Shown here in pieces: positions 23,974 through 48,132 of a DNA stretch of 64,000 nucleotides. Origin of the DNA: an uncultured Flavobacterium sp. (GTDB taxonomy: Bacteria > Bacteroidota > Bacteroidia > Flavobacteriales > Flavobacteriaceae); assembly GCA_964535705.1 (NCBI GenBank), contig CAZHVE010000001.1:56960-120959 (forward strand), in the 5' to 3' direction. The notes below the pieces were generated by a model that was not told where the DNA came from, made no database searches, and saw only the letters and a list, made by a program, of their open reading frames with translations. The first letter of the stretch is position 1. Each line of letters starts with the position of its first letter. A program made the translations under genes and the position numbers.

Positions 23974-24047
23974 GGCCTTGTGGCGCAACTGAATAGCGCA
24001 CTTGATTACGGCTCAAGAGGTTACTGGTTTGAATCCAGTCAAGGTCA
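23974..24047 (+). tRNA. tRNA-Arg(ACG)
   Basis: Acceptor GGCCTTG/CAAGGTC, anticodon arm CTTGA-TTACGGC-TCAAG, T arm ACTGG-TTTGAAT-CCAGT; no encoded CCA. Confidence 0.95.
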
Positions 24048-24833: not shown

Positions 24834-24883
24834 TTTCTATTCATACCCGAACAATCTAGATTTAGTAGTATATAAAAAATCCT

Positions 24884-24916
24884 TTTGAGACTTATAAGAT
24901 AAATTTGATATATTTG
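24884..24916 (+). promoter_or_regulatory. Consensus Bacteroidota promoter facing the cassette array (Pc-like)
   Basis: TTTG(24884-87)-N21-TATATTTG(24909-16). Confidence 0.55.
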
Positions 24917-24923
24917 GACTGCA

Positions 24924-25011
24924 ATCCGCTAAGGAGTAGCGACAACCTAACCAATTTTGGGTCTATAATCGCTACTTTATAGCGAGTATATACAAGTTTA
25001 CAAGCAACCCT
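24924..25011 (+). repeat. att-like site 1 (truncated attC or attI-like)
   Basis: CGCTAAGGAGTAGCGA...TCGCTACTTTATAGCG stem followed by core GTTTACAAGCAACCCT; no left TAAC box. Confidence 0.55.
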
Positions 25012-25118
25012 AAGAGAACTGCAAAAAAGAAAATTATTGCTAAAATTTAATTTTTATCATAAGTCGAATATGCAAACTAAATTTTACGATATTTACCAAA
25101 ATATAAGATTTAACAAAA

Positions 25119-26063
25119 ATGTACAATACTGTCCCAGAACAACTAAGAAAATTAGCAATTGAAAATGTTTTTAGTACACCTACCTATAAAAATTGTTGGA
25201 AAATTTGGCAACCAGAAATTATAAGACTCTTAGGAAATCACTATTCTGAAAATGAAATTTTAAATCTAGGTGACAATCTTTCAGATATATTCAAGTCAAC
25301 TGGAGGTGGCGGAAGAGGTCAAGGGGAATTATCAGCAAGCGGAACAGCTTGGGAATCTTTAGTTTGTTGGTATATTAATCTTTGTACAGCAGGAAGCAGA
25401 GTTGTCGCCATAAAAAAAATGAGTATTGTTCCTAAAGCAATACAAGATGCAATAACGGTGAATTATGGTAATTTTGCTTGTAATACCGAATCTGATATAA
25501 CAATTATTGTCTTTCCTGATTTACCCGAGTATAATACTGATGTAAATCAATTAAATATTTTAAATAGTAGCGGAAATCAAATTTTGCCAATTTTAAAAAA
25601 CAAATTTAATCTTGAACTAACAAATCATTTAGCAGAAAGAGATTTCAATCTATTTGAAATCGGAATTATTCAATGCAAAACAAACTGGAATGACAACGCT
25701 CAAATACCAATGTTATGGGATATGATTTATTCTGCTGGCGGTTTTCGTGGCAGAAATATAACAATAGGTAGAAATGGTTATAATATTCAAAATGCACAAA
25801 GTTTTAGTTATTCGTTTGTAACAGTTCCATCAAACGCAAATACTATTTACAAACCTGATGGAGTAGCAGTTAAGCGAGTTACTAATTTATCTGGAGGAAA
25901 CTATTGGGGTAATCCAAGTGTACAAAATGTTGCCAAATCATTAAAAGAAATTTTTACTAATAATTTCAATTCTGGCTCAAGAACTGGATTGAGAACTGAC
26001 ATTCGAACAGCAATTCCTGAATTGACAGCAAACAATCCATTGTCTTATTTTGGTCTTTATTGA
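25119..26063 (+). CDS. Putative type II restriction endonuclease (PD-(D/E)xK-like)
   Basis: Convergent with and overlapping a C5-MTase; candidate catalytic motif WES...ESDI...IIQCK. Confidence 0.6.
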   Translation: MYNTVPEQLRKLAIENVFSTPTYKNCWKIWQPEIIRLLGNHYSENEILNLGDNLSDIFKSTGGGGRGQGELSASGTAWESLVCWYINLCTAGSRVVAIKKMSIVPKAIQDAITVNYGNFACNTESDITIIVFPDLPEYNTDVNQLNILNSSGNQILPILKNKFNLELTNHLAERDFNLFEIGIIQCKTNWNDNAQIPMLWDMIYSAGGFRGRNITIGRNGYNIQNAQSFSYSFVTVPSNANTIYKPDGVAVKRVTNLSGGNYWGNPSVQNVAKSLKEIFTNNFNSGSRTGLRTDIRTAIPELTANNPLSYFGLY

Positions 26064-28282
26064 ATATTTTTCAATATTTCCATAGCAACCGCTCTAGCCA
26101 TTAGTGGGGGAACTGCGTTCCCTACTAATGTAAATTGGGGAACTTCAAATTTACGTTTATTTCCACCTGTTGAGCGTTTTCCTTGAAAAACAAAAGAATC
26201 ATCAAATGATTGAAGTCTAGCCATTTCACGAACAGTTAATGCTCTTGGATTTGAATAATGAATATAATCATCCGCTATAGTCATAATTGTAGAACTTTGT
26301 CCTTCGGGTTTTAATACAGTATAACTTCTTTTGTCAGATTCTAAACCTATTTCTTTAAGATTCGACTTTGCAGATTCATAGTTTCCTGATTTCAAAATAA
26401 CATTTAATCTTTTAATTACATCACTATTTTGCTTGCTTGTTTTATGATTTTGTAATGGTGCAACTAAATGAGCTAAGGTATTTTCAAGTTCTTCAAAATT
26501 CCTAACATAAAACGGATTCTTTGCATTTGCAAATCGTCCATTTAAACGTCCTTTTTTTGACCATTCAGAATAACTTAATCCATCATTATCATTTGGCTTT
26601 CCATCAATGTTTCTTTTTTGAATTAATTTTTTCATTTTTTCAGTAGAGCCATTGTATTGAGCTTTTAAATCTATTTTTTCATAATCAAATCTTTCATCAT
26701 CATTTCCGACAAAATCCAAATCATAAATAGCTTCAAAAACATTAACCTTTTCATTGTGTTTTACGGTTGCTGGAACATCATTTATAAGTTTTTGGTCTTT
26801 TCTACAACCAATAAATAAAACCCTTTCACGGTTTTGTGGCACTCCATAATTTGATGCTAATGCAACAAATGGTTGCTCAATATTATATAGTCTTATTTTT
26901 GATAAAATAGTTTCAAATTCTTTCTCTTTATTTGCTTTTGTCACAAATAAATCGAGTCCTTTTACACATTCATCAAAAGAGTAATCAAATATTTCAAGTG
27001 CAGTAATAATTTGTTTTACGTCATCTAAAAAAACTTCATTTGGTTTTAAATTATTAAAAGCGGTATGAATTTTATTTATAATTGTTTCAGACTCTATTGA
27101 AGTTAAAAAAAAATCAAAATCATCAGCAAAAAAATCGTTGTCCACATTTGAAAATGCTTTTTCGTTTATAACTTTTTTTCTAATATATTCAAGTTCTTTA
27201 ACACGTTTTAAAAGATTAAATCCGTGACGAATTGTGCTTATGTTTTTATCTGTTTTACTCGTCTTGTAATCAACAATTTTAGGTGTTAATAATCTGAATT
27301 TATTTTCTAAATTATTAATGTAATTGTTCTTTAAAGCATCAAGTTCTTTATCAGTAGATTTCTCAAATTGCAAACGCAAATTGTAACACTCCAAAATAAA
27401 AGATTGCTCAATTTCAACTTTTTTAAGTTGAGCAACAAAATGAATAAGTTGACTAAATTCTTTTAAATCTACAATCGATCTAATTTCTTGCAAAATCATA
27501 TCTTTAATTTTGCCTTGTTCTTTTGTCAAAATTCCTTTGACATTTTCCATAACAAAATACTTAGGACGTAATTGTCTTATTACTTTTAAATAATGTGCAA
27601 ATAAATCATCTTTTTTATCAAATTTTTTTCTTTTACCAGCCAAACTAAAACTTTGGCAAGGTGGACCGCCACAAACAATATCAATCTCTTTATCTCCTAT
27701 TTTTTTTAAAAAATTATCTAAAAAATCTGGCTCTGTAATGTCTTGACGAAGAAATTCAGCATCTAAACCTAGTTGGTAATTATATCTTGCCAAATGCGTA
27801 AGTTCACAATTTTCATTTATATCACTACCTAATCTAAAATCATAATATTTGTTTCCGTATTCAGCTTGAAGAAAGCCTTCGCTAAATCCACCCGCACCAG
27901 CGAATAAGTCCACAAAAGTAATTTTAGATTTCTTTTCATATTCAGTTGAAGGTTCTGAAACAATATTAATATCAGTGTTTTCTCTTCTACTATTAACCAA
28001 CGAAGCGATTTTTTCTTTAATTTTTTTATCCGTAAAATTAGAATGTAATTCAGTTTCAAAATATTTTTCAACTTCTTGTTTTAAAAAATTTAAAAACTTA
28101 TTTATTGACTTATGAGAATATTCGGAATCCTTTACCAACTGATTGGTATTATCCCAATCTTTCTTCATTATCTTTTCACCAGTTGCAACTTTGATTTGCA
28201 AATCTTTTTGACGCAATACCAAATGAATTGGAAATCTTTTGCTTTTATCTTCTTTATCGAGGTAGAACTTAACATTTATCAT
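26057..28282 (-). CDS. dcm: DNA (cytosine-5)-methyltransferase with N-terminal integrase Arm DNA-binding domain
   Basis: FVDLFAGAGG (I), GGPPCQSFS (IV), ENV (VI), YGVPQNRER (VIII), LTVREMARLQSF (IX), VGNAVPP (X). N-terminus VKFYLDK...PIHLVL...KVATGEKI...WD...IN..L is Arm-DNA-bind_5-like. Confidence 0.9.
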   Translation of the reverse strand: MINVKFYLDKEDKSKRFPIHLVLRQKDLQIKVATGEKIMKKDWDNTNQLVKDSEYSHKSINKFLNFLKQEVEKYFETELHSNFTDKKIKEKIASLVNSRRENTDINIVSEPSTEYEKKSKITFVDLFAGAGGFSEGFLQAEYGNKYYDFRLGSDINENCELTHLARYNYQLGLDAEFLRQDITEPDFLDNFLKKIGDKEIDIVCGGPPCQSFSLAGKRKKFDKKDDLFAHYLKVIRQLRPKYFVMENVKGILTKEQGKIKDMILQEIRSIVDLKEFSQLIHFVAQLKKVEIEQSFILECYNLRLQFEKSTDKELDALKNNYINNLENKFRLLTPKIVDYKTSKTDKNISTIRHGFNLLKRVKELEYIRKKVINEKAFSNVDNDFFADDFDFFLTSIESETIINKIHTAFNNLKPNEVFLDDVKQIITALEIFDYSFDECVKGLDLFVTKANKEKEFETILSKIRLYNIEQPFVALASNYGVPQNRERVLFIGCRKDQKLINDVPATVKHNEKVNVFEAIYDLDFVGNDDERFDYEKIDLKAQYNGSTEKMKKLIQKRNIDGKPNDNDGLSYSEWSKKGRLNGRFANAKNPFYVRNFEELENTLAHLVAPLQNHKTSKQNSDVIKRLNVILKSGNYESAKSNLKEIGLESDKRSYTVLKPEGQSSTIMTIADDYIHYSNPRALTVREMARLQSFDDSFVFQGKRSTGGNKRKFEVPQFTLVGNAVPPLMARAVAMEILKNIQ

Positions 28283-28284
28283 TT

Positions 28285-28339
28285 TACGGACGTTTTTACG
28301 GATACGGACAAATTTACGGACAAATTTTAAATACACAAG
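28285..28339 (-). promoter_or_regulatory. MTase promoter overlaid by four TACGGA direct repeats
   Basis: Repeats at 28285, 28297, 28303, 28315 (last two are a perfect 12-bp tandem TACGGACAAATT). Minus-strand CTTG-N19-TAAATTTG with the -7 element at 28309-28316. Confidence 0.7.
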
Positions 28340-28399
28340 AAAAAAAGGATATATTTTTGAAAACTATAAATTAAAACAAGTAGATTTGAAGTAAATAAA

Positions 28400-28548
28400 G
28401 GGCGGCTTGTAACAGCGCCTACAAAAAATTGGCGGTTCAGTGCTTCGTATGACAGTTTTGTGGTCTAACAAACATTTATTCTTCGTATGAACATTTGTGG
28501 TAAAAATCGCCAACTTCTTGCAGCAGCAACCCGTTACCAGTAATTTTT
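28400..28548 (+). repeat. attC-like site 2
   Basis: GTAAC...GTTAC ends; arms CTACAAAAAATTGGCGGTT / AATCGCCAACTTCTTGCAG form an imperfect hairpin that pairs better on the bottom strand. Confidence 0.7.
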
Positions 28549-28584
28549 CGAAAGTGTAAAAAAAACAAACTTTTTCTTAGAGTA

Positions 28585-28601
28585 TTACCAATTTTTGGTA
28601 A
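28585..28601. promoter_or_regulatory. Probable ParD operator palindrome
   Basis: TTACCAA-TTT-TTGGTAA overlapping a TAACTTTA -7-like element upstream of parD. Confidence 0.55.
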
Positions 28602-28622
28602 CTTTACAGAAAATAAAAAATT

Positions 28623-28871
28623 ATGGGACGTAACACATCAGTTTCTTTAGGAGACTATTTTGAAAATTTTGTTGATAATACTGTTTCTGAAGGCAGATTT
28701 AAAAATGCAAGTGAAGTTATTCGAGCAGGTTTAAGATTATTGGAAGAAGAAGAAAACAAAATAGTTGCTCTTAAGAAAGCAATTAGCGAAGGTGTTGAAA
28801 GTGGATTTGTTGAAAATTTTAATCCTAAAAAACATCTTGAATTACTAAAAGCCAAAAAACGAAATGGCTAG
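28623..28871 (+). CDS. parD: ParD-family antitoxin (RHH)
   Basis: NTSVSLG...GRFKNASEVIRAGLRLLEE motif. Confidence 0.92.
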   Translation: MGRNTSVSLGDYFENFVDNTVSEGRFKNASEVIRAGLRLLEEEENKIVALKKAISEGVESGFVENFNPKKHLELLKAKKRNG

Positions 28872-29163
28872 ATACATTCTTACCAACAAAGCTGTTGAAG
28901 ACTTATCAAAAATTTGGGAATATACATATGAAGTTTGGTCAGAGAATCAAGCTGACAAATATTATTTTGAGTTATTAGTTGATTGTCAAGAATTGGCTGA
29001 AAATCAATCTTTAGGTAAAAATTATAATGAAATAGAAAAAAATATTTTTGGTTTTAAGTCTAGTCAACATCTTATTTTTTATAGAATACTGAATACAGCA
29101 AAAATAGAAATTATTAGAATTTTGCACTCAAGAATGGATTTGAAAAATAGAATTCAAGAATAA
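28864..29163 (+). CDS. parE: RelE/ParE-family toxin
   Basis: LTNKAVEDLSKIWEYT...W...QADKY...IIRILHSRMD. Confidence 0.92.
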   Translation: MARYILTNKAVEDLSKIWEYTYEVWSENQADKYYFELLVDCQELAENQSLGKNYNEIEKNIFGFKSSQHLIFYRILNTAKIEIIRILHSRMDLKNRIQE

Positions 29164-29304
29164 AAAACTACTGGTAATCCCCGTTTGAAGCAATTGCTGC
29201 AATTGCTTAAACCAGTTGTCGTTTTCCGCTGGAAAATCTTATCTTAGCAGGAAATAATGGTTCACGAAGCCGCTACACTGGCTTCAAGCCGCGAAACGTT
29301 AAAC
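29163..29304 (+). repeat. attC-like site 3
   Basis: Begins at the parE stop: CTACTGGTAAT...CGTTTGAAGC ... GCTTCAAGCCGCGAAACGTTAAAC. Confidence 0.65.
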
Positions 29305-29409
29305 AATCCTCCCGTCTTCCATTGTAATAATCCTATTGGTTCTTTTGGCAAAATCAATATCGTGGGTGACAATCAACAAAGTTTGGTTGTTTTCTTGGGT
29401 CAGTTTTTT
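29299..29409 (-). pseudogene. 3' remnant of a LolD/MacB-type ABC ATPase
   Basis: Minus strand KKLTQENNQTLLIVTHDIDFAKRTNRIITMEDGRIV* (H-loop VTHD). Confidence 0.75.
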
Positions 29410-36214: not shown

Positions 36215-36559
36215 TTAACGTATGCATTCGACATGATTTTCTTTTGCAATAATAAGTCTTGAATTTTCTATTTCAGATTGAATTTTAACCCAATTGTCAT
36301 TAAAATATTGGTGTAATTGTTTCAAAGAACAATTACCTAATTGAAAATAAATTATTTTTGGAGTGTTTTTCGAAACCAAGAAGCGGTTATAAAAATCGGT
36401 GTCTTTTGTTAGTATAATCAACTCGTTTTTCAACGCATAATCCCATATTTCACTATCTGTCATTTGCAAATTAATGTCAGAAACAAAAACATAACGATTG
36501 TCATTAAAAAAGTTGAAATGTTTTGGTAAATTGACATCGACTAAAAATGAACAATTCAT
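36215..36559 (-). CDS. DUF5615 PIN-like toxin (VapC45-like)
   Basis: FLVDVNLP, D.EIW.YA, ILTKDTDF. Confidence 0.85.
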   Translation of the reverse strand: MNCSFLVDVNLPKHFNFFNDNRYVFVSDINLQMTDSEIWDYALKNELIILTKDTDFYNRFLVSKNTPKIIYFQLGNCSLKQLHQYFNDNWVKIQSEIENSRLIIAKENHVECIR

Positions 36560-36561
36560 TA

Positions 36562-36801
36562 TTAACTAGCTAATTGAATGTCATTTTTGTACGAGGAAAG
36601 ATTTTTCAAGGCAAATGCTATACAAGCCTGAATATCTTCTTTTTCAAGAAATGGATAAGCTTCTAAAATGGCTTCCATTGAATCTCCGGCTGATAAATAC
36701 TGTAAAATGGTTTCCACAGTAATTCTCATTCCTCTCACCGTGGGTTTGCCATTGCAAAGGTCAGGTTTTATGGTAATTCTTTCTAAAAGAGTCGCTTCCA
36801 T
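36562..36801 (-). CDS. DUF433 antitoxin-like protein
   Basis: RITIKPDLCNGKPTVRGMRITV...YPFLEKEDIQAC. Confidence 0.92.
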   Translation of the reverse strand: MEATLLERITIKPDLCNGKPTVRGMRITVETILQYLSAGDSMEAILEAYPFLEKEDIQACIAFALKNLSSYKNDIQLAS

Positions 36802-48064: not shown

Positions 48065-48132
48065 GCTCATTAGACCAACCTCTGGCGAAATCCGTGAATG
48101 TTGCTCTTTTTAAAACCATAATAAAAAATAAA
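48065..48132 (+). promoter_or_regulatory. Candidate L19 ribosomal-protein leader RNA
   Basis: TAGTTTTG -7 element at 48054-61, then CAAC...GTTG-closed structured segment in the rplS 5' UTR; an L19-Flavobacteria leader has been described. Confidence 0.45.

Follow-up and report, generated by a model that had tools for sequence, protein, structure and literature searches.

How did a restriction–modification (R-M) unit and a parDE toxin–antitoxin (TA) unit come to lie side by side, between hairpin-like repeats ending in GTT, at a locus without a recombinase gene? The question is raised by nucleotides 24884 to 29304 of a 64,000-nt stretch of the genome of an uncultured Flavobacterium sp. (contig CAZHVE010000001.1 of assembly GCA_964535705.1, positions 56,960 to 120,959 of the forward strand); the whole stretch is referred to here as the window. 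An original prediction, made from the letters alone, had described an integron-like array similar to a cluster of attC sites lacking an integrase (CALIN), with Bacteroidota-type att sites and mobilized in trans by an unidentified recombinase. Our analysis favors, with a probability of about three in four, a recombinase-less attI-like platform into which circular cassettes would have been inserted at G|TT by an IntI-related recombinase encoded at another locus. The strings quoted in the original prediction were all found where it had placed them, and the window was indeed found to contain no recombinase gene.

Both units were observed elsewhere with the same breakpoint, as judged by sequence comparison. 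Contigs from sequencing runs of four of four other studies covered the R-M unit at ~99% identity from exactly position 24998 into the second hairpin site (site 2), while the upstream gene and parDE were almost uncovered; in one run (X6), the 20 nt directly before 24998 were an attC-type end. Among homologous R-M loci, one (L166) carried the unit between two matches to a covariance model of attC-like sites (described below), behind a type I R-M system, and two others (L172 and L176) had one model match each. The parDE unit had a model match in 13 of 29 homologous loci, with differing neighbors.

The locus itself was also found to have changed its content. In a sister genome (G004), the orthologous locus matched the window at 91% up to 24998, was followed there by 7.2 kb comprising four cassettes other than those of the window (for a type I R-M system, 4.9 kb long and with ends that match; a membrane protein; an oxidoreductase; and a different parDE), and rejoined the window at 29285. 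In a third genome (G157), the attI was truncated, the cargo was different, and the match resumed at 29294. The remnant of a recombinase gene was common to these two genomes and the genome of the window (G000), and thus the orthologous loci share the gene loss yet hold different arrays. As in integrons, whole units have moved with breakpoints at G|TT: the R-M unit starts at 24998 elsewhere, and the G004 array is exchanged at GTT. The breakpoints of homologous R-M and parDE loci, which had been proposed as a test able to overturn the original prediction, came out in favor of the GTT cores. The R-M cassette of 3.5 kb had been called unusually large, and this part was not upheld, given the 4.9-kb cassette of the sister locus.

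The strongest competing explanation is that the site is an inert orphan, and that the arrays of G000, G004, and G157 were swapped by homologous recombination via the flanks or trimmed from a large ancestral array. The resident recombinase of G000, encoded on contig C7, is predicted to be non-cognate for this site, and no family recombinase was found in G004 (99% complete), both of which suit an inert site. The same holds for the terminal sites, which were decayed in all three loci, for the truncated attI of G157, and for the junction of the window, which at 24997 has one T more than the cassette start elsewhere (a real base or an assembly error). However, G000 and G004 part exactly at GTT, which requires that this attI underwent a site-specific event in a lineage without the gene, and the ~99% identity of the R-M cassette to copies in other contexts points to a recent arrival. 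We consider the inert orphan unlikely.

If cassettes moved at G|TT, the sites that bound them should be recognizable, and three hairpin sites had been described. Of these, site 2 stood as a strong attC-like site, whereas site 1 was found to be an attI-like head and site 3 to be decayed. A custom covariance model, which the original prediction had suggested running genome-wide, was built from 36 sites outside the window; it recovered site 2 with 86.8 bits (E 7e-20) and site 3 with E 0.12, and gave no match at site 1. The percent pairing in the model is inflated because its training sites were picked by stem score. Genome-wide site calls were taken from this model in place of hairpin scans, of which a permissive one (score >= 15) returned numerous chance matches across the window and a stricter one left site 2 and one site on contig C101 as the only credible sites in the genome. 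An Rfam scan of the window gave no match at sites 1 to 3, and its only matches were an L19-Flavobacteria leader (48076-48103) and a tRNA gene (23974-24047) that precedes the attI by ~0.9 kb.

On the top strand, site 2 has the three A-C mismatches reported previously (28421/28521, 28425/28517, and 28428/28514) and a fourth beside the core (28414/28532), and the minimum free energy (MFE) structure joins both core boxes on the bottom strand alone. The MFE structure of site 3 is not an attC-like fold. The claim that each end box agrees more closely with the start of its own cassette than with its hairpin's far end was confirmed: compared with the reverse-complemented left end of its unit, the R-M end box (28399-28413) agreed at 13/15 positions (with the extra T allowed; 7/15 ungapped) versus 8/15 for the far end, and the parDE box (29163-78) at 14/16 versus 4/16. 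The same was seen in relatives, where the 4 nt before AAC matched the own cassette start perfectly in 44 of 67 sites and the own hairpin end in 8 of 67, the mean match to the own cassette start being 5.2/7 versus a maximum of 3.4 in 1000 shuffles.

A search for tyrosine recombinases near similar repeats, also suggested originally, tied these sites to one recombinase family. The hairpin scan of 80 recombinase loci from named Bacteroidota genomes returned 74 attC-like sites in 259 kb located 3' of the recombinase gene and read on the same strand (2.86 per 10 kb), while the controls (other strand and upstream) gave one to three sites each (0.04-0.05 per 10 kb); at least one site was present in 32 of the 80 loci, and the distance from AAC to GTT had a mode of 118 nt. 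Top-strand mismatches across the sites were A-C in 139 cases versus G-T in 73, a strand bias that was not built in, because the scorer gave A-C and G-T equal treatment. In the consensus bottom-strand structure, which has a 4-nt bulge on the 3'-core side, 19 of 24 pairs showed compensatory changes, the stem sequence varying with pairing kept, and the pairs at columns 8/133 and 26/119 were G.T in 36 of 36 sites, equivalent to A.C on the top (mRNA-sense) strand. Most cargo genes lie on the top strand, and therefore the invariant pairs would not form in mRNA; these strand-specific pairs would fit a single-stranded DNA substrate. Conservation of a bottom-strand hairpin, as in attC, is thus supported by covariation and invariant G.T pairs, with a geometry unlike that of canonical attC, and the Bacteroidota-type att sites and bottom-strand asymmetry of the original prediction held.

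These data bear on a second alternative, in which a XerCD- or Cre-like enzyme acts on double-stranded inverted core boxes and the hairpins are RNA elements (terminators or processing sites) or accessory double-stranded binding sites. It would agree with an enzyme that has no IntI insertion and scores equally well against Xer proteins, and with the unremarkable folding energy of site 2. The wobble pairs that form only on the strand opposite most cargo genes and the stems that vary with pairing kept count against it, as do cassettes with unrelated cores that share GTT only, and we regard it as improbable.

Further attC-like sites were observed in the same genome. Contig C101 starts (1-2780) with two full sites and one partial site bounding two cassettes, and contig C64 with a partial site (1-106; the C101 and C64 sites are L246, L248, and L249); these contig starts mark the distal ends of other arrays, one or two in number.

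Site 1 is of another kind. It was rejected as an attC site, as it had no model match and a position 3' of recombinase genes; it folds well (folding z -2.5 to -3.9). Of 250 other genomes from the genus, 55 contained matches to site 1. With the query extended 2 nt beyond GTT, 39 of the 50 best non-self matches stopped exactly at window position 24998, and the DNA downstream of GTT differed among them. Among the site 1 homologs (L084-L112), 28 loci could be evaluated: in four, a complete tyrosine recombinase gene ended ~100 nt before GTT, one had a 70-codon recombinase piece, and 23 had no recombinase gene upstream, indicating that solo attI heads are common. Of these 23, eight retained the last eight codons, including the predicted -33 promoter element, and 11 had an attC-like match within 1.5 kb. 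The same layout, a head after the recombinase gene, recurred behind most of the 80 recombinase homologs, and an attI-like GTT was called behind 68 of 85 recombinase genes, some of the calls being on an internal GTT. In six loci (L028, L037, L050, L051, L057, and L061), a similar small ORF started directly after the recombinase, with no attI-like site.

The window retains the end of such a gene, and the remainder of the gene is absent; the remnant matches the end of the intact gene at 20/24 positions in the orthologous loci of G004 and G157. Within the remnant lies TTTG, which we take to be the -33 element of a promoter. The TAnnTTTG box that follows is the sigma-A -7 consensus of flavobacteria (PMC9723704). 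RNA sequencing runs covered no more than small parts of the window. As at the head of an integron array, a conserved GTT-ended site was found with variable DNA downstream and a predicted promoter. Because the conserved layout sits 3' of recombinase genes and combines a gene remnant, a promoter box, and palindromes, site 1 is, as far as its sequence tells, an attI-like array head carrying a predicted promoter, and the locus is a platform whose recombinase gene has been lost. The CALIN-like label was accordingly given up, as the array has one intact attC-like site only and its site 1 is attI-like with a promoter and a gene remnant.

The recombinase family, which the original prediction had left unidentified, could be named, and an intact member is present in the same genome. 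PF00589 had two matches in the genome, a XerD-like protein on contig C118 and a 347-aa protein on contig C7 (C7:1-1468, L002), the latter intact and followed 105 nt after its stop codon by its own GTNTG-type attI. The first cassette on C7 contains an antisense ORF and is cut by the contig end. The C7 enzyme consists of Phage_int_SAM_4 and PF00589 domains, and its catalytic residues (R204, K229, H294, R297, H320, and Y329) were invariant in 66 of 66 homologs. It aligned to VchIntI4 in two pieces and is ~42 aa shorter at the IntI insertion, its residues 249-268 spanning VchIntI4 180-241, so that the IntI-specific insertion was not found; it scored 201 bits against TIGR02249, below the cut-off of 265. 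From these comparisons, the family is IntI-related and not canonical IntI. A classical CALIN of attC sites served by canonical IntI is hardly tenable, despite the G|TT core, AAC/GTT boxes, bottom-strand bias, and TA plus R-M cargo as in sedentary integrons (bioRxiv 2024.07.02.601686), since the only two PF00589 proteins are the XerD-like protein and this short, sub-threshold enzyme, the sites are tied to the C7 enzyme family across 80 loci, and site 1 is attI-like.

The C7 enzyme has an extra N-terminal domain of ~60 aa (predicted beta-beta-alpha-beta-beta-alpha) without a Pfam match. Its best PDB profile match was the HARP domain of SMARCAL1 (4O66), with a weak E of 0.042; Foldseek placed HARP at rank 2 with E 0.83 and gave no clear match, and in a fold comparison (VIA), UvsW, with 51 aligned at rmsd 2.6 (Z 4.0), and MotA, with 53 aligned at rmsd 2.5 (Z 3.9), stood among unrelated proteins and not above background. 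We speculate that this HARP-like domain might replace the IntI insertion in recognizing folded single-stranded DNA.

The family is widespread. At E<=1e-100, its profile matched 120 of the 250 genus members, and at E<=1e-60 it matched 100 out of 201 Bacteroidales genomes, counts that include broken copies and more distant subfamilies and, in the lower tail of the Bacteroidales matches, possibly other recombinases. Full-length recombinases with a GTNTG-type attI were found on two Chryseobacterium plasmids (L270, NZ_CP041688.1; L271, NZ_CP094530.1), which possibly represent one source of an enzyme in trans. The array of L270 has four attC-like matches, with IS110 and a group II intron inside it. 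The phage collection contained no close recombinase homolog (three records, 36-38% identity) and therefore gave no support for a phage source in trans. Two 5'-truncated homologs of ~50% identity were found directly before resistance genes: one before tet(X3) on an Acinetobacter plasmid (L269, NZ_MK134375.1), with GTT before tet(X3) and an apparent truncated hairpin start after it that had no model match, and one before blaVEB-3 on a Klebsiella plasmid (L272, NZ_CP084417.1), with a two-box attI-like site whose GTT lies ~30 nt before blaVEB-3.

Which member of the family could act on the window attI was addressed from the palindromic accessory boxes, which vary in type between closely related recombinases. 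Box type was most strongly tied to alignment columns 276, 270, 205, 272, and 271, which map to where the helix preceding the HxxR box begins and beside the catalytic arginine. In a training set of 43 rows, CGCT boxes occurred with Q276 in 11/11, GTNTG boxes with S or N in 13/13, and CGAA boxes with L in 8/13; this set omits, of 66 rows, 12 without an attI call, 10 typed as other, and one false call, and one row was re-typed by eye. On a tree made by a quick method with the helix columns masked, the box labels needed 19 changes (shuffled mean 23.5). Out of sample, 29 genus loci were considered (four without an attI call, six already in training, and four typed as other), and 15 of 15 typed new members obeyed the rule. 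So did, in a second set, all 12 typed rows in which the palindrome was clear and the residue could be read, whereas exceptions occurred among weaker rows. In a Bacteroidales set of 30 loci, the search pattern gave no attI call in 16, and 10 of the 14 calls fell into other types. We infer that recombinase dimers bind the two palindromic boxes via helix residues 270-276 and that the window attI would need a Q276 enzyme. Because the window boxes are of the CGCT type and the C7 enzyme combines S276 with a GTNTG attI, the C7 enzyme is probably not cognate for integration at the window attI; it might still excise cassettes there.

In the mechanism we propose, an IntI-related tyrosine recombinase supplied in trans would act on the window attI, and circular cassettes would recombine at G|TT between the attI and the bottom strand, in folded form, of the cassette's attC-like site. 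The R-M cassette would have arrived last, and parDE with its decayed site 3, which likely locks the last cassette, would anchor the array end. Action in trans is favored by the lack of a family enzyme in G004, the 23 of 28 site 1 homologs without an upstream gene, and the enzyme genes on plasmids.

Several results weigh against this mechanism. No recombination, circle, or excised junction was seen; none of the joints listed for the four contig sets would close a circle or recreate an unoccupied site, rare forms being undetectable there. Many of the 80 homologous R-M loci lacked sites (23 left ends and 18 right ends were inspected), as did 16 of the 29 parDE loci, which had no model match in the locus, and therefore these genes also exist outside cassettes. 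The folding energy of site 2 was no better than that of shuffles (z=0.05 for the bottom and z=0.86 for the top strand), and the 4-nt asymmetry was imposed in the second hairpin scan, but 68 of 87 sites had it in an unconstrained scan. Missing from the enzyme is the insertion on which IntI depends to recombine attC sites and which has been described as essential to the working of integrons (PMC8138268), and the HARP likeness of its N-terminal domain is weak. For the specificity rule, CGAA boxes occurred with Q276 in L015, L023, L049, and L272, and only three independent pairs lay on well-supported branches, all in the same direction (p=0.25, underpowered); the helix and the attI could have been transferred together as one DNA block.

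The features of the array are listed in Table 1.

Table 1. Features of the cassette array, in window coordinates
Feature	Coordinates	Strand	Remarks
Recombinase gene remnant, last ~8 codons and stop (..KSPFDDL, stop), decayed	24872..24897	+	16/24 ungapped match to the end of the intact gene
Predicted cassette promoter	24884..24916	+	TAnnTTTG -7 box at 24909-16; TTTG 21 nt upstream, within the remnant
attI accessory box A, 17-bp palindrome, CGCT type	24926..24942	.	43 bp upstream of box B
attI accessory box B, 17-bp palindrome, CGCT type; predicted recombinase binding site	24969..24985	.	Ends 10 bp before GTT
attI-like core ending in GTT (G at 24996)	24986..24998	+	Match ends at 24998, divergent DNA beyond
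Cassette 1, R-M unit, 3536 bp, 28-31% GC	24998..28533	+	Unit starts at 24998 in runs of four studies
Predicted restriction endonuclease, 314 aa	25119..26063	+	Usually beside a methyltransferase in homologous loci
C5 cytosine methyltransferase, convergent with the endonuclease	26057..28279	-	PF00145 E 2e-52; MTase_II
Site 2, intact attC-like	28407..28539	-	Core box 28399-28413, G|TT at 28533; bottom-strand hairpin, G.T wobbles, 4-nt bulge
Cassette 2, parDE toxin–antitoxin unit, 765 bp, 27% GC	28534..29298	+	Model match in 13/29 homologous loci
ParD antitoxin	28623..28871	+	PF03693 E 1e-24
ParE toxin	28864..29163	+	PF05016 E 2e-17
Site 3, decayed attC-like	29172..29304	-	AAT for AAC, mismatched arms; 20.1 bits, E 0.12 genome-wide
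Distal array end, common to both orthologous loci with different arrays	29299..29311	+	G004 rejoins at 29285, G157 at 29294

The 314-aa protein had no Pfam, NCBIfam, or PADLOC match, and its label as an endonuclease is based on the linkage to a methyltransferase in homologous loci and on a weak language-model lead to Bse634I/NgoMIV-like clusters (score 0.85). A search for this endonuclease in 400 genomes of the phylum gave zero matches, and its homologs came from metagenomes. The methyltransferase starts with an Arm-DNA-binding-like domain (27950-28279, minus strand; PF17293 E 6e-4, below cut-off) that resembles the Arm-DNA-binding domain of Bacteroidetes integrases. Four TACGGA repeats lie just upstream of its gene (28280-28335), and at least three such repeats within 70 nt were found in 13 of 80 homologous loci; they are possibly an autoregulatory operator of the methyltransferase. 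Behind the array, an ABC-transporter operon is present in G157 (~2.9 kb), with its first genes also in G004, and is missing in the window (29387-29409). A DUF433/DUF5615 gene pair (36215-36801, minus strand) is likely a TA module outside the array.

What the locus contributes is base-exact evidence for the movement of cassettes, the turnover of an array at a recombinase-less site, and an attI specificity rule that can be tested. The locus offers exact att sites, a cassette bounded exactly in several contexts, an orphan attI with a changed array, and an enzyme–attI prediction that turns on one residue. Integrons have been reported to be nearly absent from Bacteroidota (PMC9024848, which names one complete integron in Bacteroidetes, that of Salinibacter ruber), yet the recombinase profile was found in about half of the genomes of both sets, and from this frequency a large cassette-exchange system seems to have been overlooked by standard tools. 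It would show anti-phage R-M systems of 3.5-5 kb travelling as cassettes, and a hairpin-recognizing recombinase without the IntI insertion would bear on the evolution of integrons from Xer proteins. A wider reading, which we advance only tentatively, is that of a second, parallel integron system in Bacteroidota, with an IntI-sister recombinase that would recognize folded single-stranded cassette sites by a HARP-like domain standing in for the IntI insertion, a code for its own attI in which residue 276 (Q, S/N, or L) corresponds to CGCT, GTNTG, or CGAA boxes, and many solo platforms of attI and promoter, the present one included, dispersed over chromosomes and loaded in trans by whatever cognate enzyme is at hand; this system would also be the source of the tet(X3) and blaVEB cassettes in Proteobacteria. 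The open-access literature searched contained no description of these sites or their mechanism.

The array shares with CALIN and In0 elements (PMC9024848, as far as its available text goes) a small, recombinase-less layout with a decayed terminal site. A CALIN is defined by two or more attC sites and the lack of a neighboring integrase; the window has one intact and one decayed non-canonical site, with attI and promoter kept. For the genes named xerD or tpnF beside tet(X) variants (PMC7473080, PMC11194056), the available text of these papers identifies no att sites and leaves the role of the neighbor open, whereas in our analysis tet(X3) and blaVEB-3 were each preceded by a truncated C7-enzyme homolog with a GTT-type core behind it. 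The likeness to the particular genes in those papers is one of name, and the repeated occurrence of xerD next to tet(X) may be accounted for by the present system.

Among described systems, the closest is rAID-1, a cluster type of Bacteroidales whose name stands for recombinase-associated acquired interbacterial defence, reported in 226 of 423 Bacteroidales (bioRxiv 10.1101/471110; 10.1101/2025.05.03.651265). As described in the sections available, a XerD-like tyrosine recombinase lies 5' of a low-GC array, one motif follows directly after its stop codon and another lies between genes, an arrangement called "reminiscent of integrons"; the recombinase is defined as >44% identical to BF9343_RS08045, with at least two co-directional downstream genes of GC <= 41%. 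In the family studied here, which is common in Bacteroidales, the gene order agrees with that description, and two motif classes at such positions may correspond to the published ones. In the window, the cargo has 27-31% GC versus 36-38% in the flanks, and three of the four cargo genes are co-directional, the methyltransferase being reversed. Orphan T6SS immunity genes, the cargo of rAID-1, were not found in the array; instead, R-M and parDE genes, a convergent pair, and no recombinase gene are present in a freshwater Flavobacterium-like genome. The same sections give no crossover point, hairpin, cassette, movement, or mechanism, and the terms "cassette," "excis," and "circular" are absent from the 2025 text as available; the present system would supply the missing mechanism for rAID-1-like clusters.

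In canonical attC sites, the extrahelical bases lie on the arm other than the 3'-core arm. Compared with integrons (PMC8618304, in the portion available; VchIntI4 structure 2A3V), the enzyme is alike in its Phage_int_SAM_4 and PF00589 domains and in a C-terminal SP.. motif that aligns with VchIntI4, and the array is alike in its G|TT crossover, its attI and promoter at the head, its structure-conserved bottom-strand sites, and its TA and R-M cargo, which is typical of sedentary integrons, where the systems tend to be small (bioRxiv 2024.07.02.601686). Unlike in integrons, the enzymes of the C7 family have the extra N-terminal domain of ~60 aa in addition to lacking the IntI insertion, attI sites of the window type lie 3' of the recombinase gene and are co-oriented with the array, and the attC-like site of ~132 nt has 3/7-nt spacers and its bulge on the 3'-core arm. 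The palindromic accessory boxes, whose type switches with a residue of the enzyme, likewise set these arrays apart from integrons.

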